The notes under the pieces: model-generated
Databases searched by the model: none
Seen by the model: the letters and a program-made list of their open reading frames with translations, nothing else
What the model was told of the DNA's origin: nothing
Program-made: the position numbers and the translations under genes
Part shown: positions 1 to 20,182 of the stretch, piece by piece
Layout: each line of letters starts with the position of its first letter
How positions within the stretch are numbered: the stretch's first letter is position 1
Source of the DNA: Promethearchaeota archaeon
GTDB lineage: Archaea; Asgardarchaeota; Lokiarchaeia; Sigyniarchaeales; SOKP01
NCBI GenBank assembly: GCA_004524535.1
Contig: SDNY01000003.1
Coordinates: forward strand, 7,138-71,137
Length of the DNA: 64,000 bases
Direction: 5' to 3'

Positions 1-197
1 TGCTGTTCAGCTATTATTAATTTATTATCTTGACCCAAATCGATGTATTTTATCACACTCCGTAAGGCCTCTCTGCTAAAATTTGCGATTGAGGCAAAAA
101 ACCCAATCATTATATTATCTTCAAAGTCTTCTTTCGTGTAATTCTTTGAATATATCAACAACCCATTTTGTTTCATAATGTAAAAACTTTTTATCAT
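1..197 (-). CDS. Longin-like domain protein, runs off the window edge
   Basis: Hand translation from ATG 197: MIKSFYIMKQNGLLIYSKNYTKEDFEDNIMIGFFASIANFSREALRSVIKYIDLGQDNKLII. Fits the longin N-terminal pattern (hydrophobic strand, G, LLIYSK strand, then GFF-SI-NF helix). Not in the ORF track. Confidence 0.6.
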   Translation of the reverse strand, partial: MIKSFYIMKQNGLLIYSKNYTKEDFEDNIMIGFFASIANFSREALRSVIKYIDLGQDNKLIIAEQ

Positions 198-221: not shown

Positions 222-1976
222 TTAAGTTAAATTAAAAAATTCTAAATATTCATGCATCGATGCTTTATATTTTTTATAATTATAAATATACGGGCCGACA
301 ATCTCCATTAATTTAATTATCAATTGATCTGGATTTTTTCTTGAAAAGATTTTGTATTTTTCGTTAACACGTTCTGTAATAAAGGTTGCTGATTTAATTT
401 CTAGCATTTTTTTCAATGCGTCAATATCAGGATTATTTAATTCAATCGTGATTATTTCACCAAAATGTGGAATTTTCGAAATAAAATCATTGACAGTACC
501 AAGTTCAGCAGTTTTTCCAGAAACCATAAGGATTTTATCGCAGTTTGAAACAATATTTTTACGACCATGAATTATTAAGATAACATGAAATTTCTTTTTT
601 ATTTTATTCATAAAATCGTTAAAATTTTCACCTTGAATCCGTTCTAACTCGCCTGGAGGTACAGAGAACATAATTATATCAGGTGATTTTAGAAGTTCTC
701 TTGAGATTGATAATAATAAACGATCTATATTAGAAAGTGTAGAAACTTTTTCTTTTTTTCTGTTTAATAATCCTGTTACTTCTAAGGCGGAATTTATAAA
801 GCTCTTTTTAGTCTTGTATTTTGGAGGCAACGATATAATTTCGTCAATTTTACTAAAAATTCCAGCAAATTTTGCTTTAGTGCTTAAAGCTCTCTTTCTG
901 ATTTTCCATTTTGGTTTTATTTTAATATTATAATGTACTGCTTTCTTAATAGACATGTTTAATATTCTCTCATCAAGTAAATGCGAAGTTATAACAATTT
1001 TTTTCAACTCATCATTTGTAGCTAACTGTATATGTCTTCCGAATAATTTGATGGTTCCTGAATCTATTAATTGAGAACCCGCTATTATATTAAACAATTT
1101 TACTATTTGTGTATTTGATCTGAATTCTCTTGATGATTCTAAATTGTAAAGGATTCCAATTGATTGCCCTCTATGAATATTAAACGTTATATCTTTAATA
1201 TCCTCTCCAGAAGATATATTATTAACTACGAGATGCTGTGTTCCCCCTTTTAAGTTAAATAATGATTTAATTATTTGAAAGATATGAGGGGGGTTCTCAG
1301 CATCCCAACTTTTAATTACATCTGTATTTATAGAAATATTTTCCATGAAAGCTGTTACTCTTTTTACTTTTTGCCTTAATGTGCCTTTAAATTTCTCTCT
1401 TAATATCTCTTTGAAGCGTTCTATATAGGTTTTTATATATTTTTCAATTATAATTTGATTTTTTTCCATTAATTTTGGTTCAAGAGGGTATTTTTCTAAA
1501 TTAATCTTGAATTTAATAATTAGATCAGGAAGATAAATTCTTATCTTTCTGAAGTAAGGATTCCCAACAACGGGACTATTTTCAAAATGCTCATCAATTA
1601 ATTGGATTTCATTATCCAATATAGCTAAATGAGATTCTAATTCTTTTTTAATCAGCTTATTAACTCTTTCTATTATTTTTTTAGGGCTAACAAGTCCATC
1701 TTTATCAATATCTGGCTCAACTATAATTTCAATAAAATCAAATTCAGTCTCTGTAGGGGTATATATTTTTATGAGGGGAACACCGCGTTTTATTACATCC
1801 TCATTGGTGAAAAATAAGATTTCAATATATAATCTTTTATAAATTAAATCTAAAATAGTGGCAATTCCAAACGTTCTTTCTCGGTAAATCATCCAATACT
1901 TTTCCGAAAATCGAATTGCATCAACAATTTTTAATCTTAAAACCTCTAATTGAGGTACTTTAATAATAGAACTCAT
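222..1976 (-). CDS. Degenerate ABC ATPase domain fused to an unknown ~250 aa N-terminal domain
   Basis: ABC-like context ITFNIHRGQSIGIL but no Walker A GKT/S. Signature is LSNIDR instead of LSGGQ and Walker B is IIMFSVP instead of hhhhDEP; H-loop IIHG retained. ATGA overlap with the upstream gene. Confidence 0.75.
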   Translation of the reverse strand: MSSIIKVPQLEVLRLKIVDAIRFSEKYWMIYRERTFGIATILDLIYKRLYIEILFFTNEDVIKRGVPLIKIYTPTETEFDFIEIIVEPDIDKDGLVSPKKIIERVNKLIKKELESHLAILDNEIQLIDEHFENSPVVGNPYFRKIRIYLPDLIIKFKINLEKYPLEPKLMEKNQIIIEKYIKTYIERFKEILREKFKGTLRQKVKRVTAFMENISINTDVIKSWDAENPPHIFQIIKSLFNLKGGTQHLVVNNISSGEDIKDITFNIHRGQSIGILYNLESSREFRSNTQIVKLFNIIAGSQLIDSGTIKLFGRHIQLATNDELKKIVITSHLLDERILNMSIKKAVHYNIKIKPKWKIRKRALSTKAKFAGIFSKIDEIISLPPKYKTKKSFINSALEVTGLLNRKKEKVSTLSNIDRLLLSISRELLKSPDIIMFSVPPGELERIQGENFNDFMNKIKKKFHVILIIHGRKNIVSNCDKILMVSGKTAELGTVNDFISKIPHFGEIITIELNNPDIDALKKMLEIKSATFITERVNEKYKIFSRKNPDQLIIKLMEIVGPYIYNYKKYKASMHEYLEFFNLT

Positions 1977-4900
1977 TCTAATTTTGGGACCTCCATAGCT
2001 TTATATCTAAAATATTGTTCAATCTTTGTATCATTCTGCTTTATATCTTTAATCGAATCAAAACCAAAATTTAATTTAATTTTTTCTTCTAACGAGCTTA
2101 TATTCAAATCGGAAAGTATAGAAAAATCAGTTCCCGCTTTATTTTCAAGAGCTTTATCAATGCCTTCAATGGATTCGAGCCTTTCAATCGCATTTTCATT
2201 TACACCATTAAAATATAAGTCGACAGTTCTTCCTTTACCTGGTAATTGAGCTAATAAATCTTTAGGACGGCCATAATCTATCATCCCTCTCATTCTCCCA
2301 AAAATGGCAACGCGGTGGCAAAATTGAGATTCTTCAGGATAATGAGTTACCACTATTAAAGTTGAATTAAATTGTTCATTGATTTTAGTCAGTGCTAACC
2401 AAAGATTTTCCCTCACCACTGGATCCAATCCACTAGTAGGTTCATCCATCCAAATAATAATAGGATCATGAATTAATGCCATAGCAATGGATACACGCCT
2501 CTTTTGACCCCCAGATAAATTTTTAACCTTTTCATGCATTTTATCTTCAATTTCTAAAGCAGTTAATATCCGCTTTGCTTTTTGCATGACCAATTTCTCT
2601 GTCATATCATATTGCTTTCCGAAATACATTATATTTTGCAAAGTCGTGAAATTTTGGTAAATTTTATCGAGATCTTGAGGGACATAACCATAAATTGGTC
2701 GCATCTTCTTATGTTTCTTCTTGACATTCATGCCATAAATCTGAATTTTTCCTTTATATTTTCGCATTCCTAAAAGGGATTTTACAAATGTTGACTTACC
2801 AGCACCACTCTCTCCTAATACTCCTAAAATTTCTCCATGCTTTAATTTCATCGACACAGACTTAACTATTAACTTTCTCCCAGCAAAAATATTTACATTC
2901 TCGCATAAAATGGCTGGAAACTTTTCCAAATATGATATATTATATTTTTCACCGACTCCAAATCTTTCTTTCAATTTTTTGGAAACTGTTACATTTAATA
3001 TGGAAATGATCTTGATAATGCCAAATAAAAGTAGTATTAACATTTCTATAATAAATATTGATGTAATTAAATCATTCCAAGGTTTTGGGTTAAAACTTTG
3101 GTCATAACTTAATTCTTCAATGAGCATTATACCATATGGTGTATTTCTTAAATCTCCACCAAACATAGGAAAGTCTCCAACTCCTCCTGTGTTAGAACTG
3201 AGACAATCTTCGTACCAATCAATTAAATCTTCAATATTTTCTGGTTGAAAATCATATTCGTATAGTCCCATTGCTGCGAAATATGATACGAAAAATGTCG
3301 ATGGAAACTCAAAAAGATCTGAGATTACAGGGATCGGAGCAAAGCTTCCATCTTCATCTTGGGCTTTTTTCAAAAATTCTATTGCCGCAATTGTTGACAT
3401 AGGGTCTATCTCTAAAATTTTTAAAGTTTTTAATCCAAAATAAGTTGAAATAGTGTCGCTATGAAACCCTAAAACTATTGGAAAACCCCCATCAGCGCTT
3501 TGGGCTGCTGAAATCCAATGAATTAAATTATCCTCATCAAGCTTATCCAAAGCTTCTAAAATCTTTAGTGATGCTACGGCCCAATATGTACTTTCCATAG
3601 TCGGCGTATCTGTTTCAATTAGATCAGTAAACATTTGACTTAATGGTCCAAAAATGGACATAAGTTCATTTATATCAACCCCTAATTCAAATCCTCCATC
3701 ATCATCTTGAAGATCAACTAAATAATCAATTGTATCTTTTCTATCAGGAAGAGAAATATCTGAATAAGTAAGTAATATTTCATAAAGATTAATTGCATGA
3801 TAAGTTGCTAATAAACTTGTACTTCCACTAGGTTGAGAGCTAAATCCTCCATCTCCTTTATTATAACAATCTTCCACATAATCCCACATATTATCTATAT
3901 CAACATAATCAGTAAAATTATCAGGCTCGACGAGATATATCGATAATGCTCCTAAATAATTCGCTTCAAGTGAAGTATGCCCAAATAATCCGTTCTTTGC
4001 TTGATGAGTGTATAACCAGCTATAATAATTTTGAATATAGGTTTCGATATCCACCCCTGGCAAATTAACCTTATCTCTGAGTAAATCTATTGACTTCATG
4101 GCAGCCCATCCAGATATAAAATCTGAACTACTATTCAAATAAGCATCTGATCCAAAACCTCCATCTAACTTCCCACAATTAAGGATAAACTGAAGTGTTT
4201 CATTAGCTTTATCCGGTATAATATTTAAAGTATACATTGATGATAATGCATAAAAAGTAGATTGAACGTTGGATATTCCAACGCTAGAATATCCACCATC
4301 GATGTTTCTAAGACTCTTGAGATAATTTTCAATAGTTTTATTTTGAAATTGATTGAATTTTTGACCTAATTCTAAATAAGCTTTAATTCTATAATACAAT
4401 TGCTCAACAGATTCATCATCCCAATTACTTAGTTCTACATAATTAGTAATATTTGGATTACTAAGAATAGATTTGGCGTTAAATATATTAGCCATATGAA
4501 TTGCACAATATGTAGATCTAATATCGGGCAAAGGTGCGTATTCATTATATTTAAAACCCCATCCATCCTCTAAAAGACAATTTTGGATATAAGTTAAAAT
4601 TTTCCCGATTTCATCGGATTTTGAATATAAATAAGTAGGATTTAATAAATCTATAATCTCTATTACCTCATAAGTTGAAAACATGTTGCCTAAACCACCA
4701 ATATCAGAAAACGAACCATTATTGTTCTGTTTTTCAAATAAATAATCAAAAAAGAACTCATCATAATCCCTTATATAACTAATTGACCTAGGAAAAATTA
4801 AATCAGTTAAATATGGATAAACATGAGAAAAATCAATTGAATCAATTGCACGGAAGTTTGCATCGATTTCAGGTTCAATAAAAAGATCAGAATCAGAATT

Positions 4901-5071
4901 TTTGTGTGAATATGAAAACTCCATCATATCTTCTTTCAAATCTTGAAGTTCATCATCATCATAATATTTTATCCAAGGATAATTTATGACAGCTAAAATC
5001 GTAAGCTGCAAAGTGAACAATGCTGATAAAAATAATAAAATTTTTAATTTTCGTTTTGTTTTATCTTCTAT
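1973..5071 (-). CDS. Prenyltransferase/squalene-oxidase-repeat ectodomain + TM helix + ABC ATPase fusion (about 1032 aa)
   Basis: Repeats of Q/N-x-x-DGGF type (QNNNGSF, NIDGGYS, KLDGGFG, QAKNGLF, GDGGFS, QDDDGGF, QSADGGF, QDEDGSF). TM LITSIFIIEMLILLLFGII. ATPase motifs GESGAGKST, LSGGQKRR, WMDEPTSG, VTH. The frame extends 17 codons upstream of the TTG at 5020 to ATA 5071, adding the basic n-region IEDKTKRKLK before a hydrophobic segment. Confidence 0.85.
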   Translation of the reverse strand: MEDKTKRKLKILLFLSALFTLQLTILAVINYPWIKYYDDDELQDLKEDMMEFSYSHKNSDSDLFIEPEIDANFRAIDSIDFSHVYPYLTDLIFPRSISYIRDYDEFFFDYLFEKQNNNGSFSDIGGLGNMFSTYEVIEIIDLLNPTYLYSKSDEIGKILTYIQNCLLEDGWGFKYNEYAPLPDIRSTYCAIHMANIFNAKSILSNPNITNYVELSNWDDESVEQLYYRIKAYLELGQKFNQFQNKTIENYLKSLRNIDGGYSSVGISNVQSTFYALSSMYTLNIIPDKANETLQFILNCGKLDGGFGSDAYLNSSSDFISGWAAMKSIDLLRDKVNLPGVDIETYIQNYYSWLYTHQAKNGLFGHTSLEANYLGALSIYLVEPDNFTDYVDIDNMWDYVEDCYNKGDGGFSSQPSGSTSLLATYHAINLYEILLTYSDISLPDRKDTIDYLVDLQDDDGGFELGVDINELMSIFGPLSQMFTDLIETDTPTMESTYWAVASLKILEALDKLDEDNLIHWISAAQSADGGFPIVLGFHSDTISTYFGLKTLKILEIDPMSTIAAIEFLKKAQDEDGSFAPIPVISDLFEFPSTFFVSYFAAMGLYEYDFQPENIEDLIDWYEDCLSSNTGGVGDFPMFGGDLRNTPYGIMLIEELSYDQSFNPKPWNDLITSIFIIEMLILLLFGIIKIISILNVTVSKKLKERFGVGEKYNISYLEKFPAILCENVNIFAGRKLIVKSVSMKLKHGEILGVLGESGAGKSTFVKSLLGMRKYKGKIQIYGMNVKKKHKKMRPIYGYVPQDLDKIYQNFTTLQNIMYFGKQYDMTEKLVMQKAKRILTALEIEDKMHEKVKNLSGGQKRRVSIAMALIHDPIIIWMDEPTSGLDPVVRENLWLALTKINEQFNSTLIVVTHYPEESQFCHRVAIFGRMRGMIDYGRPKDLLAQLPGKGRTVDLYFNGVNENAIERLESIEGIDKALENKAGTDFSILSDLNISSLEEKIKLNFGFDSIKDIKQNDTKIEQYFRYKAMEVPKLE

Positions 5072-6133
5072 TACGCCTCACCTTCCATTATTTGTTCGCT
5101 TTCTCTTAATTTCCTTTCTTTCTCCTGTTCTTCTTGGATTCTAATCTGGAAATACCTTCTAAAAGTAGCATTATCCTTACTCATGGAAGTAACTTTTAAA
5201 TTGTTTTTTATCGTATATTCAATTAATTTCTGAAGGTTTTCTTCAAAATCCTCAATAAACACTTCAATTATTTCATTTCCGACACGTATTGTTTTTTGGA
5301 CGGGTGTAAAATTTTTAATAATTTTAATTTTATTCTCAGTAAGATCCTCAATAGTTAATCTAGTTAATAAGCCACCACTCGGGAGTGATGCTATGAGATT
5401 ATCATTAGAATCGAATTCTAATAATTTTCCATCTCTTAAAATCGCGCTTTTATCACATATTAAGGCTGCCTCCATATCGTGTGTGATAAGAAACATTGTC
5501 GTTCCTAATTTTCGATTTAACTTTTTTAAATATGAGAGAACTTCATATCTTTTTGCTGCGTCTACACCTTTTACCTCCAACTGCGTCTTACGCTAGTATG
5601 GATGTGGTAGGCTCGTCAAGAAAAAGAATTTTAGGCTGATGGATTAAACCAATAGCCACTGAAACTCTCTTTTTTTCTCCTCCGCTTAATTTTTTTAATC
5701 GTTTTTTCCAAGTATCTTCCGGAATGTCAAGTATCGAAAATAGTTCTTTTGCTATTTCTTTCGCATTTTTTTTTTTCAATCCATAGGTCGATGCAAATGT
5801 TTCTACATTCGCCATAGGAGACAACTCATAGTAAAGATTGAGACCTTCAAGTTGAGGAACATATCCAATATTGCTTAAGATTTTTGGATGATTTCTACTT
5901 TGTGCGGGATTTAAATCGGTGACTTTTACATTCCCATTCCAGTTCTTTTTATTGAGCTGGCACGTAAGTACTCGTATAATAGTTGTTTTGCCAGCACCAC
6001 TGATACCAAATAAACCGATTATTTCTCCGGATTTCACTTGAAAAGATACATCATGAACGACCTGTTTGTCTCCGAATTTAACATTTAAATTTTCGACATT
6101 TACCATTACATCCGTTATGTTTTCTGACTTCAA
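5071..6133 (-). CDS. ABC-2/DrrA-type ATPase with intron; exons 6133-5604 and 5569-5071, 342 aa spliced
   Basis: The ORF track shows two halves: GISGAGKTT, LSGGEKKR, LFLDEPTT, then GVDAAKRYEV...ITHD. Removing 34 nt joins DEPTT-GVD in frame (530+499=1029 nt). Confidence 0.9.
5570..5603 (-). other. Putative 34-nt bulge-helix-bulge (BHB) intron in a protein-coding gene
   Basis: Minus strand: GCC TACC AC^A TCCA-TACTAGCGTAAGACGCAGT-TGGA GGTA AA^A GGT. Central 4-bp helix TACC/GGTA, 3-nt bulges ACA and AAA, inner helix TCCA/TGGA, outer helix GCC/GGU. Contains an in-frame TAA. Confidence 0.85.
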
Positions 6134-6187: not shown

Positions 6188-7420
6188 TTATACCTCATAT
6201 CTTTTTCTTTTAATTACCAAAAATGAAAGTACTATAAACGCAAGACTTAAAATAAGTAAAGCAAAAAAGTCGAAGCAAAAGACTGATTTCCCTTTTGATA
6301 GGATTCCATTTATCATTGGTTTTCCATGAGATAATGGTAAGATAAACGCTACTATTTGTAAATATTCAGGCATGGATTCTATAGGAACAAAAATTCCACT
6401 TAAAAGGGCAATTACGATAAAGGCCGCGAAGAATAGTTGATTGGCTTCTGTCTTTGTTTTACTTACTGTACTGATAAACATTCCTAAAGAGACGCCCGTA
6501 AAGCCTAAAATGAATAAGGCCAAAAATATATCAAATAACGAGCCGGCCACATAGAGACCATTAAGAAGTGAAGTTGAAAGAATTATAAATACTTGGAGCG
6601 CTAAGATAATAGAATATGTAATATATTTGGACAAGAGAATTTCATGTTTTTTAGCAGGGGTTAGTAAAAGACGAGCGATAGGTTTTTCTTGTACGACTAC
6701 TAAAATAGTAAGTACAGTGCTAATTCCGAAAATCATAAATGAAAATAATATAATCATGCTATAATTGAACCTGAAATTATAATCAGATGGTACTGAATAC
6801 TCTTCGTATTCCATAAGGACGAATTGAGGGTCTAAATTGTTATCTTCTACAAAAAGATCAATTGAATCCTCAACGGCATTAAGTTTTTCTTGGATATAGA
6901 ATATTTCTGAGCTATCTGGTATACATTCGATTATCCCAGGTAAATCTGTAGATAAAAACTCTGAGAACTCTACAGGAATCTCAATAATAATTCCAATTTT
7001 ACTATCACGTAAATCATCTCTTGCCTTTTCCATAGCATATTTTTCTTCACTTGCATCGTAGAAATCAACAAGGTCCAAATATTTAGATTTTTCGACAGCG
7101 TCTAAATATTTTTCAGTAAAATTATCCCAAAAAGTTGTAATTGTATAGTTATCTTGATTGACATATAATTCGGAATCATAGCTAACAACAGTACATTTAA
7201 CTGGAATAATTTCTGAGGCACCAGCAGAAGACATGGAAGCAAACATCCATATTATTAGTGGTGGTAATGCAAGGGCAATAAAGAGATTGATTTTATCGGT
7301 TTTTAAAAGCTGGAATTCTTTTTTTATCTGTTTTGCCAATCGAAATAATCGAATTTTTAATTTTAAAAAACCACCGGTATACGTGTCATTGCTACTCATT
7401 TGATTATTCTTGTCATCCAA
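6188..7420 (-). CDS. ABC-2 type transporter permease
   Basis: KEFQLLKTDK N-terminus, one TM, a large acidic extracellular loop, then five TMs. RLLLTPAKKHEILLSK, SGIFVPIESMP and LPLSH are typical of YhhJ/YbhS-like permeases. Confidence 0.9.
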   Translation of the reverse strand: MDDKNNQMSSNDTYTGGFLKLKIRLFRLAKQIKKEFQLLKTDKINLFIALALPPLIIWMFASMSSAGASEIIPVKCTVVSYDSELYVNQDNYTITTFWDNFTEKYLDAVEKSKYLDLVDFYDASEEKYAMEKARDDLRDSKIGIIIEIPVEFSEFLSTDLPGIIECIPDSSEIFYIQEKLNAVEDSIDLFVEDNNLDPQFVLMEYEEYSVPSDYNFRFNYSMIILFSFMIFGISTVLTILVVVQEKPIARLLLTPAKKHEILLSKYITYSIILALQVFIILSTSLLNGLYVAGSLFDIFLALFILGFTGVSLGMFISTVSKTKTEANQLFFAAFIVIALLSGIFVPIESMPEYLQIVAFILPLSHGKPMINGILSKGKSVFCFDFFALLILSLAFIVLSFLVIKRKRYEV

Positions 7421-7426
7421 TATTTA

Positions 7427-8593
7427 TCAGACCTCCACCTTTTTAAATCTATAAGCAATATATGCTCCTATTATGAAAACCAAAGAAATCAAATTTAAAC
7501 TAAGAAAGTGGAATAAATCAATAGGTAAGCCTTTTTTAGTAATTTCATTTATTAATGGAACAGCATGACTTAATGGCAACGCGTTGATTATGAATTGCAT
7601 TGCAACCGGTAATGTATCCATTCTTATGAATGAGCCTGAAAACATCAATAAAGCGATAAAAAGCATTATATAGAGTTGGTTTGCTTGTTGTTCCGTCTTA
7701 CTTATTGAGGAAATGAATAAACCTATACAAATCCCACAAAAACCTATTGCAATTAAAATCAGATAGAGACTAAACAAGGATCCTAAAGAAAACATCCCAA
7801 ATATCGCTGATAGAGCAAATATAATTGTTACCTGGAATAACATTATTATTGAATTTGCTATCAGTTTACTTAAGATTATTTCTTTTTTAGCGGTCGGTGT
7901 GAGTTGTAAGCGGGGGAGCGGTCCTTCAGACACAATTGATAAGGAAGTAAGATTCATTAACAATCCTAGAATAAGCATTGATAAAACTATGGATAGAGCA
8001 TAGTTCAAAACTTGAGTCTCCCAATACGGCACCTCATATTCAAGGTAAGGAAACATTGTTACGAAATTAACCGTTTTCCGTATCCTAATTTTAAACAAAC
8101 CAATTGGTTCCTGAATCGCCACATCAACTGCATCAACCGCCTCTAAATCTGATCCATCGATGTAATAAGTAAGAGTTGTATCAGTTTCGTTCTCTATTGT
8201 TTCAGAGAAATCTTCCTCCAAAATAATAAATACATCTATGATTTCATTCCTTAGGAGCTCAAAGCACTCTTCAAATGCATCATCATATTCTTCCTCATTA
8301 TCACATGAATATGAATCAATAAGGCCCCATGCTGAACAATCATCCTCCACAACATCAATAAATATATCGTCATAATTAAGGGTAGAATTTGATTCAAGAG
8401 GGAATTCAGGAGTTTCGTATGGTATATTATCACGGGAAATAATTGCTGCGTTATAGAATTCAGTGGGGCCTCCTCCACTAGTTAGACCGAATATCACGAT
8501 TAATATGACTGGGATTGTAAATATTAAAATTAAAGTTCTTTTATCTGCTTTAATTCTACTAAATTCTTTCCTTATTAAACCGCTTAAATACAT
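7427..8593 (-). CDS. ABC-2 type transporter permease
   Basis: IRKEFSRIKADKR, RLQLTPTAKKEIILSK, FSGSFIRMDTLP, LPLSH; paralog of the adjacent permease. Confidence 0.9.
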   Translation of the reverse strand: MYLSGLIRKEFSRIKADKRTLILIFTIPVILIVIFGLTSGGGPTEFYNAAIISRDNIPYETPEFPLESNSTLNYDDIFIDVVEDDCSAWGLIDSYSCDNEEEYDDAFEECFELLRNEIIDVFIILEEDFSETIENETDTTLTYYIDGSDLEAVDAVDVAIQEPIGLFKIRIRKTVNFVTMFPYLEYEVPYWETQVLNYALSIVLSMLILGLLMNLTSLSIVSEGPLPRLQLTPTAKKEIILSKLIANSIIMLFQVTIIFALSAIFGMFSLGSLFSLYLILIAIGFCGICIGLFISSISKTEQQANQLYIMLFIALLMFSGSFIRMDTLPVAMQFIINALPLSHAVPLINEITKKGLPIDLFHFLSLNLISLVFIIGAYIAYRFKKVEV

Positions 8594-9686: not shown

Positions 9687-10547
9687 TTACATGAATCCAA
9701 AAAAATCGGCGGTTGCGGAAGGTCTCTTTAACTCTGCATTAAAATAAGTTTCCGCAATTTCTATTATGAATTGTAAATAATCGCTCGGCAATTTCACTTT
9801 ATATATGGAAAAAAAGTGATCAAAAATCTTTTTTGTGATGAAATCTTGGTTTTCCTCGAGCGAGTCGTTGAACTCAATGATTTGTTCAGCTAACTTATAA
9901 ACTTTTTGAATTTCATTTTTTATAATAATTAGACTTGTATATGGATCAATCTCTGAGTAAAATTTCTGTGCAATAGTACTTTCTATTTTTAATTTTCTCT
10001 GATTAATGAATTTGGTTTTATCTTGAATGATTTTGAGTCCTTCAACTACAATATAATCTTTATATTTTTTTTTGTCGTTTTTATAATCGGCACGCTTAAT
10101 AATCAAGAGTTCCGTATTAAACGTATCTCCAATAATGTATCCAAAAAATTTTTTAAATTGGCCATTAAGGAACTCTTGATCTGAGAGTAATACTATGTTT
10201 TTATTAAAGATAATACAAGAAATAATTTTGATCATTAGCGAGGGAACAATATTAAGCTTGATTATGTCTAAATCTAAATCTTTATCAATTTCTTCGTCTA
10301 TTTTTACTTCTTTAAAACCAATTTCAGGTATTTGAACTTTAAAATCGCATATAAAGCAATCTCTTACATCGAGATTTTTATCAATATACGCAACAAAAGA
10401 ATGTTCGCATACTAAATCTTGCGAAACATTAATGGCTGAGACGCCTCGTTTACTTTCCAAAATAAAATTCTTTTCTACCCAAATCTCACCCTTCTTGGAG
10501 CAGACAGGACATCTGATTTCAACTTTTACTTCTAATTTGGAGGACAT
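9687..10547 (-). CDS. CPxC...CxH Zn-binding domain protein with a possible DENN-like C-terminal domain
   Basis: RCPVCSKK...LVCEHSFVAYIDKNLDVR, followed by IISCIIFNKNIVLLSD, which resembles the cDENN core strand. Confidence 0.55.
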   Translation of the reverse strand: MSSKLEVKVEIRCPVCSKKGEIWVEKNFILESKRGVSAINVSQDLVCEHSFVAYIDKNLDVRDCFICDFKVQIPEIGFKEVKIDEEIDKDLDLDIIKLNIVPSLMIKIISCIIFNKNIVLLSDQEFLNGQFKKFFGYIIGDTFNTELLIIKRADYKNDKKKYKDYIVVEGLKIIQDKTKFINQRKLKIESTIAQKFYSEIDPYTSLIIIKNEIQKVYKLAEQIIEFNDSLEENQDFITKKIFDHFFSIYKVKLPSDYLQFIIEIAETYFNAELKRPSATADFFGFM

Positions 10548-10806: not shown

Positions 10807-11442
10807 TTAATTCCTGCTTTTTAATCCTTGTCTTCTCTTTTTATCTTTTATGATAAACTCTTTAAATTCTGAATTATCATCATCTATGAATTCCCAAAAT
10901 TCTTCGTATATTTCTTTAAGAGTCATTACCTTTTCCTCATTGGATACAATTTTTTCAGGTTCACTATTCATATGTATATTTTTTACCTTTTTTGGTTTAT
11001 ATTCAAGATAATTTCCTTCAAGAATTAGATTTTCGAAAAGATCATCATTGCTTTTATTGAAATTGTCAATATTAGCCTCCTTATTTTTATTAAGAGCCAA
11101 ATCAAGGTCTACTTTTTGATATCCCCGAACTTTAAATTGTTTATCAATGAAAACTTGAAAATGATGTTTACAAACTAAATCTTTAGGTATAGATACTGTT
11201 GTTAGACCAGTTTGGTTGATAATTGATACTGGAACAGTGATATCCTTTTTAGATTTACAAATAGGGCATATAACATTTACAATCTTAACTTTTTGTGAAG
11301 AAACATCAATTTCACTTAATTCTGAATTTGAAAACGAGTCTTTCAACATAAATAAGTCACTATTCATATTTTTAAAAACAAAGTTAAAAAGTCGTAAATT
11401 ATTGATATCTAATAATTTTAAACTTATTTTTCCTTTATCCAA
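10807..11442 (-). CDS. CPxC...CxH Zn-binding domain protein
   Basis: ICPICKSKK...LVCKHHFQVFIDKQFKVR; same domain as the neighbouring gene. Confidence 0.6.
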   Translation of the reverse strand: MDKGKISLKLLDINNLRLFNFVFKNMNSDLFMLKDSFSNSELSEIDVSSQKVKIVNVICPICKSKKDITVPVSIINQTGLTTVSIPKDLVCKHHFQVFIDKQFKVRGYQKVDLDLALNKNKEANIDNFNKSNDDLFENLILEGNYLEYKPKKVKNIHMNSEPEKIVSNEEKVMTLKEIYEEFWEFIDDDNSEFKEFIIKDKKRRQGLKSRN

Positions 11443-15965: not shown

Positions 15966-16050
15966 AATATGACTCCTAATATGAATGCCTTTTATATCAA
16001 TATTTTGTTTTTAAGGATATTTTATTGAGATAAAAAAGAAATGAGTTATT

Positions 16051-16080
16051 TTATAATTCTAAGAAATTTTTCAAGATGTA
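16051..16080 (-). repeat. trpG/pabA 3'-end relic
   Basis: TAC ATC TTG AAA AAT TTC TTA GAA TTA TAA = YILKNFLEL*; 25 nt identical to the 27081 copy. Confidence 0.8.
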
Positions 16081-16103
16081 TTAGATCTAAGACTAGATTA
16101 ATT

Positions 16104-16220
16104 AATTTCCTCAATATCTGGAGGTATTGAATAATCACTATTAATCTCTGCTTACAATGCTAATTTCTGAGGTTCCAGTATTTTTCCTATATCCTCCTTA
16201 TTTGCATATTCAATTAACAT
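16104..16220 (-). pseudogene. Second GNAT 5' fragment with internal stop
   Basis: MLIEYANKEDIGKILEPQKLAL*AEINSDYSIPPDIEEI; aligns with the 13603-13728 relic. Confidence 0.6.
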
Positions 16221-16233
16221 TTTACTCTCACTT

Positions 16234-16716
16234 TTACTCTTTTTTTTTGGGGCGAATTAAAATAATATGAATTGTCACAGCTATAGCAATGATGATTAGA
16301 ACATATCTAACCCATATAATTTGAATAAAAATAAACGATGTTAAAAGAATTGTTATCCATAACATAGAAATCGTAAAAATTTTGACTTTTATAGGCATTC
16401 CTTTTCCTTCTCTAAAGTTTCTAATATATGAGCCAAGAATCCTATTGTTTAATAACCAATTATAAAATCTTTTAGAACTTCTAGAAAAGCATCCTGCTGC
16501 AAGTAAAAGAAAAGGGGTAGTGGGTAAAATAGGTAAAATTATTCCTATAATTCCTAAACTTAAACAAATGATCCCCCCAGTAAAATATAATCCCCTGACA
16601 TACTTATTGCGTTCTTTCGCATCCTCCTCATTTAAATTTTCAGGCTCGTTATTTTCTAGTTCAGAGTTACTAGATCCTTCTTCTGGGAGATCAGAGTTTT
16701 TCTCGTATTGATCTAT
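16234..16716 (-). CDS. YbaN/DUF454 family membrane protein, probable ATA start, missed by the ORF track
   Basis: Hand translation gives LGIIGIILPILPTTPFLLLAAGCFSRSSKRFYNWLLNNRILGSYIRNF. No in-frame ATG/GTG/TTG precedes the conserved region. AGTGA + 6 nt + ATA at 16716. Confidence 0.85.
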   Translation of the reverse strand: MDQYEKNSDLPEEGSSNSELENNEPENLNEEDAKERNKYVRGLYFTGGIICLSLGIIGIILPILPTTPFLLLAAGCFSRSSKRFYNWLLNNRILGSYIRNFREGKGMPIKVKIFTISMLWITILLTSFIFIQIIWVRYVLIIIAIAVTIHIILIRPKKKE

Positions 16717-16907
16717 AATATTTCACTACTTAAGTGTTCCTAATAAATTGAATTACTTACAATTTATATTTTCTTCCTAGTTAATAAAAAAAAATGTAAT
16801 TTTAAAATGGAATTGTCTACTTTTTTTTTCTATACGCCTGTATTTTTATTTATATCAATATTACCAAGTCTGGGGACGCTGCTGATACCAGGGATCCTAT
16901 TAAGCTA

Positions 16908-19178
<2,271 letters not shown>

Positions 19179-19399
19179 TTAAATTTATAAAGAATCTAAA
19201 TCAGACTAACACTAAGATTCCTAAATAATAACTATTTTTATTTAGTTACAGTTTTTTAAAAAAGATTATGTCTTTATTTTATAAATAAAAAAGAAAAATG
19301 ATTTAACCAGATAATCACTAAAGAATTAGGTCTATAAATATTCACGTTTTAGCAATCTTAAAAAAAGAGTGTATTAAATAATATTCTTATATTTTTGAT

Positions 19400-20182
19400 T
19401 TATAATCTTTTATATCTCTGGCTTGCAATATATGCCGCACCCAACGCACCCACAATTTGAGGATCTAAAGACATTTTTAAAAACCTTTCTCCAAGCATTT
19501 CTTCTAAATAGCGCACTACACCTATATTCTTCGCAACGCCACCAGATATTGCAATATCTTTCTTAACTTTTATACGTTTTGTCATAGAAAATACTCGTTC
19601 CGCCATAGCTTTATTAATTCCAGCAGCAATATTTGCCTTTTTGAAGCCTGAACTAATATATTGTAGCACTTCTGCCTGAGCATATATACTACATGTGCTT
19701 TTTAGATTTATTGGTGCCTTGCTTTTTAAAGAAATTGTACCTAATTCTGTTAACGAGAGATGTAATAAATCTGCCATTATTTCAAGATATCTGCCTGTGC
19801 CCGCTGAACACTTCTCATTCATTCCAAAATCAATCAGCTTTCCAGTACGATCAATTGAGATAACCTTACAATCTTGACCTCCTATATCAATAATAGTACG
19901 AACACTTGGAAGTAAAAAATGTGCCCCAATCCCATGACAAGTAATTTCGGTAACACTCTTATTGGAAAATGGGATATTATCTCTCCCATAGCCTGTGCTA
20001 ACAATAAAATTTACATCCTCCTTATTTATATTTGTTTCGGACAACACTATTTCAAAAACACTTTCAGCTGTCTCTATCGGAGTTTTTTTTACTCGAATTA
20101 CCTTAAATCCTACTATTTCATTATCCTTCAATAATAAAGCTTTTCCAGTTAAGGATCCAATATCTATTCCAGCAAAGACCAT
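19400..20182 (-). CDS. Acyl-CoA dehydratase activase / BCR-type ATPase subunit
   Basis: GIDIGS, STGYGR, IDIGGQD, KCSAGTG, TCSIYAQAE, GGVAKN (ASKHA fold with two Fe-S Cys). Confidence 0.92.
   Translation of the reverse strand: MVFAGIDIGSLTGKALLLKDNEIVGFKVIRVKKTPIETAESVFEIVLSETNINKEDVNFIVSTGYGRDNIPFSNKSVTEITCHGIGAHFLLPSVRTIIDIGGQDCKVISIDRTGKLIDFGMNEKCSAGTGRYLEIMADLLHLSLTELGTISLKSKAPINLKSTCSIYAQAEVLQYISSGFKKANIAAGINKAMAERVFSMTKRIKVKKDIAISGGVAKNIGVVRYLEEMLGERFLKMSLDPQIVGALGAAYIASQRYKRL

Follow-up and report, generated by a model that had tools for sequence, protein, structure and literature searches.

A prenyltransferase-repeat/ABC ATPase fusion in a six-gene operon

The DNA analyzed here is a 64,000-nucleotide stretch from a Promethearchaeota archaeon (GenBank assembly GCA_004524535.1, contig SDNY01000003.1, positions 7,138 to 71,137 of the forward strand; hereafter, the window). 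Near its left edge lies a gene that fuses prenyltransferase-type repeats to an ATP-binding cassette (ABC) ATPase and that is the fourth of six operon genes, in the order permease 1, permease 2, ATPase A1, fusion, A3, and P269. From the left edge to position 8593, every gene is on the minus strand, and the genes follow one another closely, with overlaps of stop and start codons. An initial annotation, made from the sequence alone, envisaged a five-protein complex; the conserved sixth gene, which starts at 197 and runs off the window edge, was missing from that count.

The fusion gene spans positions 1973..5071 (-) and encodes 1032 amino acids (aa) plus the stop, an extent delimited by the open reading frame (ORF), Pfam matches, the N-termini of homologues, and an AlphaFold2 model. 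In the ORF list, it figures as a 1015-aa version with a TTG start (1973..5020, -). The frame stays open beyond this TTG to 5071, and the residues gained (IEDKTKRKLKILLFLSA...) agree with the N-termini of full-length homologues, which begin with M-[DE]xKTKRKLK and continue into a hydrophobic stretch. An ATA codon stands at 5071. At the aligned position, the relative L004 has ATG, and near-cognate codons recur elsewhere (ATA in L006; ACG in L007, L008, and L010). In the window, ATA overlaps the TAA that ends the upstream ATPase gene (TA-A-TA, window 5069-5073) and lies 3' of a GGTG Shine-Dalgarno-like motif, an arrangement found likewise in other loci. On these sequence comparisons, ATA at 5071 is the probable start, and the stop/start overlap combined with the GGTG motif suggests termination-reinitiation coupling. 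The homologue N-termini and the codon overlap also confirm the coordinates that the initial annotation had assigned to the gene. As a consequence of the near-cognate start, gene callers cut off the N-terminal anchor in many database entries (986-1015 aa versions).

Hydropathy analysis identified exactly two hydrophobic segments in the fusion protein (aa 8-31 and 664-698), both with cytoplasmic flanks that are rich in K/R across homologues. The AlphaFold2 model, built on 40 homologues (mean predicted local distance difference test score [pLDDT], 87.4), comprises a transmembrane (TM) helix at residues 3-29, an all-alpha region at 32-660, a long helix at 663-703, a nucleotide-binding domain (NBD) at 720-945, and a C-terminal alpha/beta domain at 948-1026. 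Mapped onto the window, the protein begins with a signal-anchor helix conserved in homologues (aa 8-31, after KTKRKLK; 4979..5050, -), which is followed by the prenyltransferase-beta-repeat ectodomain (aa 32-662; 3086..4978, -; pLDDT ~90). A second TM helix with a cytoplasmic extension (aa 663-700; 2972..3085, -) and a basic KKLKERF flank then lead into the ABC ATPase domain (aa 720-945; 2237..2914, -) and a C-terminal regulatory-type (R-like) domain (aa 946-1032; 1976..2236, -). Since the NBD must be cytoplasmic, the repeats are predicted to lie outside the cell. The succession of anchor, alpha/alpha repeats, TM helix, and intact ATPase had been proposed before any search was run, and Pfam, hydropathy, and AlphaFold2 bear it out.

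The fusion has all catalytic motifs of an ABC NBD (PF00005, 6e-29). Walker A GESGAGKST, Q799, LSGGQKRR, D876-E877, SGLD, and H910 are invariant in 40 homologues. NCBIfam places the domain in the drrA/NodI/GldA group of ABC-2 ATPases (drrA, 3e-47), and the GldA family model spans the NBD and the C-terminal domain end to end. Structural comparison of these two domains with Foldseek retrieved TM_1403 (4yer; target TM-score, 0.81) and NosF (7o0y; 6e-17), along with ABCA3/1/4/7. The best PDB sequence matches of the NBD are ABCA3 (6.5e-64) and ABCH (2e-44), which partly reflects how few prokaryotic ABC-2 systems have been solved; we do not claim a special affinity to eukaryotic proteins.

The ectodomain is matched by Prenyltrans (PF00432) in four stretches (1e-40). 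It consists of ~630 aa, is all-helical in the AlphaFold2 model, with roughly 28 helices, and probably forms two alpha/alpha toroids. Its resemblance to RabGGTase, FTase, and GGTase-I beta subunits (RabGGTase beta, 5e-11) is confined to the repeat level, that is, to the toroid signature Q..DGGF and S-T-Y, which also accounts for most of the conserved ectodomain residues. A membrane-proximal segment, NTGG.GD.P.FGGDLRN, is strongly conserved as well. In contrast to the beta subunits of cytosolic protein prenyltransferases, which pair with a PPTA alpha subunit, the ectodomain is membrane tethered and is predicted to be extracytoplasmic, with its repeats flanked by a TM segment at either end and facing away from the NBD side of the membrane. 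The zinc site is missing. In an alignment to the zinc-bearing repeats of RabGGTase beta, Glu replaces the Cys ligand and Ser replaces the His ligand, and no conserved D-x-C-[YF] motif was found across homologues, in line with the absence of DxCY reported in the initial annotation. Neither was a conserved DxDD motif, the hallmark of class II terpene cyclases of the squalene-hopene cyclase type, found across homologues, and SQHop_cyclase matches to the fusion are faint. No gene for a PPTA alpha subunit was found in the operon or flanks of the inspected loci. Among the best 50 Foldseek matches, the full-length fusion and A3 models retrieved NBDs only. Homologues of prenyltransferase beta subunits are common in archaea (PMC4915359), and Rab GGTase homologues have not been found in Asgard archaea (PMC10933270).

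A scan of 1.84 billion representative proteins for the ectodomain returned only 21 clusters at E<1e-30, with full-length members of equal size and all named members from Asgard archaea. Beyond the family, the ten closest matches whose domains were scanned are ABC-less proteins with PKD or collagen repeats in the style of surface proteins, which points to an extracellular binding module. Because zinc ligands and DxDD are missing and the repeats are topologically outside, the toroids are most probably a binding or acceptor module and not an enzyme, as initially supposed for the barrels. Database names such as "putative protein geranylgeranyltransferase type II" are misleading for the fusion, and the present analysis corrects them. 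In L004, Prenyltrans also weakly matches a separate 427-aa protein, whose gene lies ~7 kb downstream of the operon (L004:13120-14403).

The combination of PF00432 and PF00005 occurs in >120 protein clusters (44-94% identity), so the fusion is not an assembly artifact. Its architecture and NBD motifs are shared by 40 aligned homologues at 46-64% identity. The family was found in 39 species-representative genomes, and all named hosts are Asgard archaea, namely Promethearchaeota/Lokiarchaeia and metagenome-assembled genomes (MAGs) labeled Thor-, Hermod-, Odin-, and Hodarchaeota. A tblastn search with the six proteins against all fetched loci recovered the same gene order in essentially every locus with enough flank, even in a member with only 28% identity. 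The operon thus appears to be restricted to Asgard archaea and strongly conserved within them, and the gene-order conservation that the initial annotation had proposed to look for is real.

Two different permeases, already distinguished in the initial annotation, open the operon. Permease 1 (388 aa; 7427..8593, -) is of the ABC-2 type, with an extracellular loop of ~150 aa between TM1 and TM2 (ABC2_membrane_3, 2e-25), and is followed by permease 2 (410 aa; 6188..7420, -; ABC2_membrane_3, 1e-25). Each is also matched by ABC2_membrane and ABC2_membrane_2. The two are paralogous (~34% identity), and a heterodimeric membrane domain is therefore expected. A profile of both permeases, run against PDB, retrieved insect ABCH (8yzp/9ju6, 9e-25) and also human ABCG1. 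The third gene encodes A1, an ATPase of the DrrA/NodI type with a C-terminal domain according to NCBIfam.

Downstream of the fusion, A3 (584 aa; 222..1976, -) has a start that overlaps the fusion stop codon. It consists of an N-terminal domain of ~240 aa followed by a pseudo-NBD and an R-like domain, which together make up the C-terminal 340 residues, an assignment based on AlphaFold2, Foldseek, and weak sequence similarity. No Pfam family matches A3. NCBIfam ABC models align to it down to 1e-8, over aa 387-510 only, and PDB ABC ATPases do so at 4e-9; its AlphaFold2 model (pLDDT, 82.6) retrieves NBDs in Foldseek. In A3, conservation is missing from the Walker A, signature, and Walker B columns, which marks it as a pseudo-ATPase. 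The three ATPase domains counted in the initial annotation thus reduce to two competent ones, those of the fusion and of A1 (6133..5071, with a 34-nt interruption), plus a third (222..1976) that lacks Walker A and B. The N-terminal ~240 residues of A3 are confidently folded in the model, and no relatives of them were detected.

P269 is cut by the window edge, which leaves its first 65 codons (1..197, -), identified by translation up to the edge and 98% identical to the gene in L003. It follows A3 in 38 loci and is full length at L003:5703-6509 and L001:14021-14827. In relatives, it is a 269-aa protein with a soluble head of ~125 aa and four C-terminal TM helices. The head has only sub-threshold Pfam matches, all to longin-fold families (Sybindin, Intu_longin_1, and clathrin adaptor small chain), and a P269 profile returned nothing significant from PDB sequences. 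Tentatively, the head may be longin-like; if confirmed, a membrane-anchored subunit of this kind would be unusual in an ABC system. No homology was found between the head and the N-terminal domain of A3. We also considered whether the two TM helices of the fusion and the four of P269 might jointly build a six-helix ABC-2 domain. A profile-profile comparison between P269 and the permeases yielded a probability of 0.2%, and the idea was rejected at the sequence level.

A putative mRNA intron in the A1 gene

A1 is listed as two ORFs (6133..5588 and 5580..5071). Intact A1 homologues read LFLDEPTTGVDA(A/S)KRY; in the window, an insert of 34 nt separates the second Thr codon from the Gly codon and introduces a stop and a frame change. 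Bulge-helix-bulge (BHB) motifs, the targets of the archaeal splicing endonuclease, consist by definition of a 4-bp helix with a 3-nt bulge at either end, the whole bounded by flanking helices (PMC5829648). The insert RNA folds into precisely this canonical 3-4-3 arrangement, with an outer helix GCC:GGU, a central 4-bp helix UACC:GGUA, 3-nt bulges ACA and AAA, and an inner hairpin. Cuts in BHB motifs fall between bulge residues 2 and 3 (PMC2738675). Applied to A1, this rule removes exactly 34 nt (5603..5570) and yields ACC ACA GGU GUA GAC (TTGVD), with the predicted junction ...CCTACCAC|AGGTGTAGAC.... The gene would accordingly comprise exon 1 (5604..6133, -; ABC_tran, 1e-26), which covers the part from Walker A to Walker B, with ...LFLDEPT-T(AC|) at its end; the intron (5570..5603, -), delineated by folding, frame restoration, and covariation; and exon 2 (5071..5569, -), which in the spliced translation specifies the D-loop, the H-loop, and a C-terminal regulatory-type domain, with the stop at 5073-5071. 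Translated without the intron, the gene gives a complete ATPase of 342 aa, which shares 65-78% identity with intact homologues.

Comparison across loci strengthens the case. The 34-nt insert recurs in an independent MAG with one substitution, which turns a U-A pair into U-G. An unrelated 31-nt insert interrupts the same codon in 17 other contigs (7 species-representative genomes and 10 metagenome contigs), has the same 3-4-3 geometry around a helix AACU:AGUU, and restores the frame likewise when excised. Together with the window, 18 other Asgard contigs (L003, L013, L017, L020, L029, L035, L042, L043, L045-L049, and L051-L055) bring the intron-bearing sequences to 19. Excision restores DEPTTGVDA in all 19 of them, the same peptide that is found in 29 intronless alleles. 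In a test of nine sequences, all eight core pairs were paired in every sequence, whereas slid controls paired in 11-51%; four pairs are compensatory, and one of these joins the third codon positions of both exons. In L045, which was outside this test, the outermost pair is an A:C mismatch. Shuffled introns attained the required register in 3e-4 and 6e-4 of trials for the two intron types. The free-energy z-score of the intron region is an unremarkable 0.21, and the case for a BHB intron relies on register, frame restoration, and covariation, not on stability. L005, which is 93-96% identical at the protein level, lacks the intron and shows several extra synonymous differences clustered near the junction. 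Translational bypassing or frameshifting was dropped as an explanation for the split gene, as two unrelated inserts of 34 and 31 nt at one codon both fit the 3-4-3 geometry.

Asgard archaea have been reported to possess a broad-specificity (alpha-beta)2 splicing endonuclease (PMC5829648). The A1 insert is very likely an mRNA intron removed by a splicing endonuclease, and the sequence evidence identifies A1 as a functional gene, not a pseudogene, which gene callers split in many published genomes. Our literature search found no report of mRNA BHB introns in Asgard archaea, and crenarchaeal cbf5 and A1 may be the only archaeal genes with an mRNA intron of the BHB type. As in cbf5, excision at the predicted sites, between residues 2 and 3 of each bulge, brings the exons back into frame (PMC2738675), and the intron is patchily distributed among relatives. 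Unlike cbf5, the host gene here encodes an ABC ATPase in the Asgard lineage, the introns are strictly canonical 3-4-3 whereas those of cbf5 are mostly relaxed, and two unrelated intron sequences occupy one codon. The A1 intron would thus extend archaeal mRNA splicing from crenarchaeal cbf5 to Asgard archaea.

Four loci carry 1-2.8 kb of additional DNA between permease 2 and A1 (L011:1455-3441, L029:4686-6852, L035:5802-6867, and L017:4057-6867), which in L017 includes a further ABC ATPase-like stretch. Three of these four also bear the A1 intron.

A candidate type V exporter with a tethered acceptor

The permease part of the operon has the features of type V ABC systems, i.e., ABC-2 permeases with six TM helices and an extracellular domain after TM1. 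Eukaryotic representatives of this type (ABCA1/3/4/7 and insect ABCH) share with the operon both the permease topology (TM1, large extracellular domain, TM2-6) and an NBD followed by a C-terminal regulatory domain, as in the fusion. They differ in that the Asgard machine is split into separate polypeptides and adds a toroid ectodomain, carried on one NBD through two helices of its own, a dead NBD protein, and a 4-TM protein.

Other ABC machines offer partial parallels. NosDFY is an accessory ABC machine for the maturation of N2O reductase, in which NosD works with the transporter. Like the Asgard operon, it has a permease of the ABC-2 type and a NosF-type NBD carrying an R-domain, to which a large accessory domain is added on the extracytoplasmic side; it differs in being homodimeric, with one ATPase type, and in that NosD is a separate beta-helix protein, as opposed to an alpha/alpha toroid fused to the NBD. 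In LptB2FGC and GldAFG, a TM-anchored accessory subunit beside the permeases handles cargo outside, a concept akin to that of the fusion. This subunit is a separate polypeptide of unrelated fold, and we know of no case in these two systems in which it is covalently joined to the ATPase.

On this basis, the operon may well encode an Asgard six-gene type V (ABC-2/ABCA/ABCH-like) exporter in which the fusion acts as a second motor subunit with its own extracellular acceptor, a reading of the sequence data that we hold with moderate confidence. A1 and the fusion would form the NBD heterodimer that powers the permease pair, and the two TM helices of the fusion would dock beside the permeases, like LptC in LptB2FGC. 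The toroid ectodomain would sit over the permease loop domains and receive hydrophobic cargo extruded from the membrane, or hold it for an external acceptor, with A3 and P269 serving as scaffold or regulatory subunits. With the acceptor covalently tethered to the motor, ATP binding and hydrolysis could be coupled directly to ectodomain movement through the long connecting helix. By analogy with the ABCA/ABCH lipid exporters and with the affinity of the fold for isoprenoids, the cargo may plausibly be a lipid, an isoprenoid, or a polyprenyl-linked molecule. The hand-off of a lipid or isoprenoid to an attached extracellular acceptor, raised in the initial annotation, is in this sense a reasonable hypothesis.

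Several points weigh against this exporter model. That A1 pairs with the fusion and that the ectodomain sits over the permeases is assumed. With three NBD-like proteins, the operon encodes one more than a canonical transporter needs. The density of N-glycosylation sequons in the ectodomain is twice that in the NBD part, yet both parts are enriched relative to their composition, and this measure does not discriminate outside from inside.

A bolder version of the same model, and a long shot, would be a machine, unique to Asgard archaea, that hands off a lipid or an isoprenoid: an ABCA-like exporter with its own extracellular acceptor, governed from the cytoplasm by a dead ATPase and a membrane-bound longin-type subunit, with one motor gated by mRNA splicing through the tRNA-splicing endonuclease. 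If true, it would provide a prokaryotic link between longin/GTPase-style regulation and membrane-lipid transport, and the splicing gate on A1 would be analogous to unconventional splicing of the HAC1/XBP1 type.

Among the alternatives, the operon could instead encode a mechanotransducer, in which ATP hydrolysis flexes the tethered ectodomain for work outside the cell, such as extracting, releasing, or remodeling a surface component, and no substrate crosses the membrane. Precedents would be MacB, LolCDE, and FtsEX, or NosDFY in the loading of NosD. The single long continuous helix (663-703) that joins ectodomain and NBD, the place of NosF among the best structural matches, and the strong conservation of the membrane-proximal NTGG.GD.P.FGGDLRN segment are all in keeping with such a device. 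However, type VII mechanotransducing ABC systems have a four-helix membrane domain of the FtsX type, in which TM1 and TM2 are joined by a periplasmic domain, whereas the permeases here are ABC-2/type V and the fusion contributes only two TM helices, and the known relatives of these permeases (ABCA, ABCG, ABCH, and DrrAB) translocate substrates. We therefore consider mechanotransduction unlikely.

A sensor or regulatory complex, in which the ectodomain binds an external ligand and A3 and P269 pass on the transporter's state to partners in the cytoplasm, for instance the abundant Asgard small GTPases, somewhat like flux sensing by BceAB, seems rather improbable. It would give a function to the two conserved noncatalytic subunits, and it draws on the weak matches of P269, all to longin-fold families, and on the small GTPase genes near several loci. 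However, the longin assignment is sub-threshold, GTPase genes are very common in Asgard archaea and do not keep a conserved position relative to the operon, and no conserved kinase or transcription factor gene was found in the neighborhood.

Some database names imply a true extracellular enzyme (a protein prenyltransferase, a terpene cyclase, or similar) that receives its substrate from the transporter. In its favor are PF00432 matches, which are significant, and weaker ones to the squalene-hopene cyclase family. Against these stand Glu and Ser at the zinc-ligand positions, the absence of conserved D-x-C-[YF] or DxDD, the lack of a PPTA gene in any inspected locus, and a predicted site outside the cell, where prenyl diphosphates are not expected, which together make catalysis highly improbable. 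Finally, the in-frame stop and frame change in A1 and the noncanonical start of the fusion might suggest an assembly or sequencing artifact or a decaying pseudogene cluster, a reading effectively refuted by conservation across assemblies: the same fusion occurs in >120 clusters from independent assemblies, near-cognate starts lie at the same position in several lineages, and the 34-nt interruption recurs in an independent MAG, folds as a canonical BHB, and restores the frame on excision.

The initial annotation did not recognize this exporter architecture. The transporter itself is recognizable as ABC-2/type V, with a DrrA/NodI/GldA-type NBD and ABCH/ABCG-like permeases, and it is for the fusion of prenyltransferase repeats to an ABC ATPase that our literature search found no paper. 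ABC transporters rank among the most thoroughly studied membrane machines; in the searchable literature and among solved structures, we found no description of a motor domain with a covalent, membrane-crossing link to a large extracellular toroid, or of this six-subunit set. Three features appear to be new: an NBD covalently tethered to a large extracellular domain, the use of a toroid fold for that domain, and a constant partnership with a dead NBD protein and a 4-TM protein. Among prokaryotes, Asgard archaea are the closest relatives of eukaryotes, and very little is known about the biology of their cell surface and membranes. The operon is a concrete, clonable target for learning how they handle lipids or surface components.

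Genes flanking the operon

Near the operon, four relatives carry pairs of FAD_binding_4 and CCG/Fe-S (lactate/glycolate oxidase-like) genes or LUD and CCG genes (L001:18251-21150, L003:11167-13930, L004:8743-11630, and L044:2220-4269). The side on which such genes lie in distant relatives corresponds to DNA beyond the left edge of the window.

Upstream of permease 1, two adjacent paralogous ORFs of 286 and 211 aa (9687-10547 and 10807-11442, -) share an N-terminal zinc-ribbon-like motif, Cys-x2-Cys ... Cys-x-His (CPVCSKKGE../CPICKSKKD.., then VCEHSF/VCKHHF). No family was assigned to them, and in other loci they are not conserved beside the operon. Farther along, the region ~16000-20000 stands out with a G+C content of 0.38-0.40 against a background of ~0.30. 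An Rfam scan of the whole window returned no matches, so this stretch is not rRNA; it extends over a 738-aa ORF (16908-19124, -).

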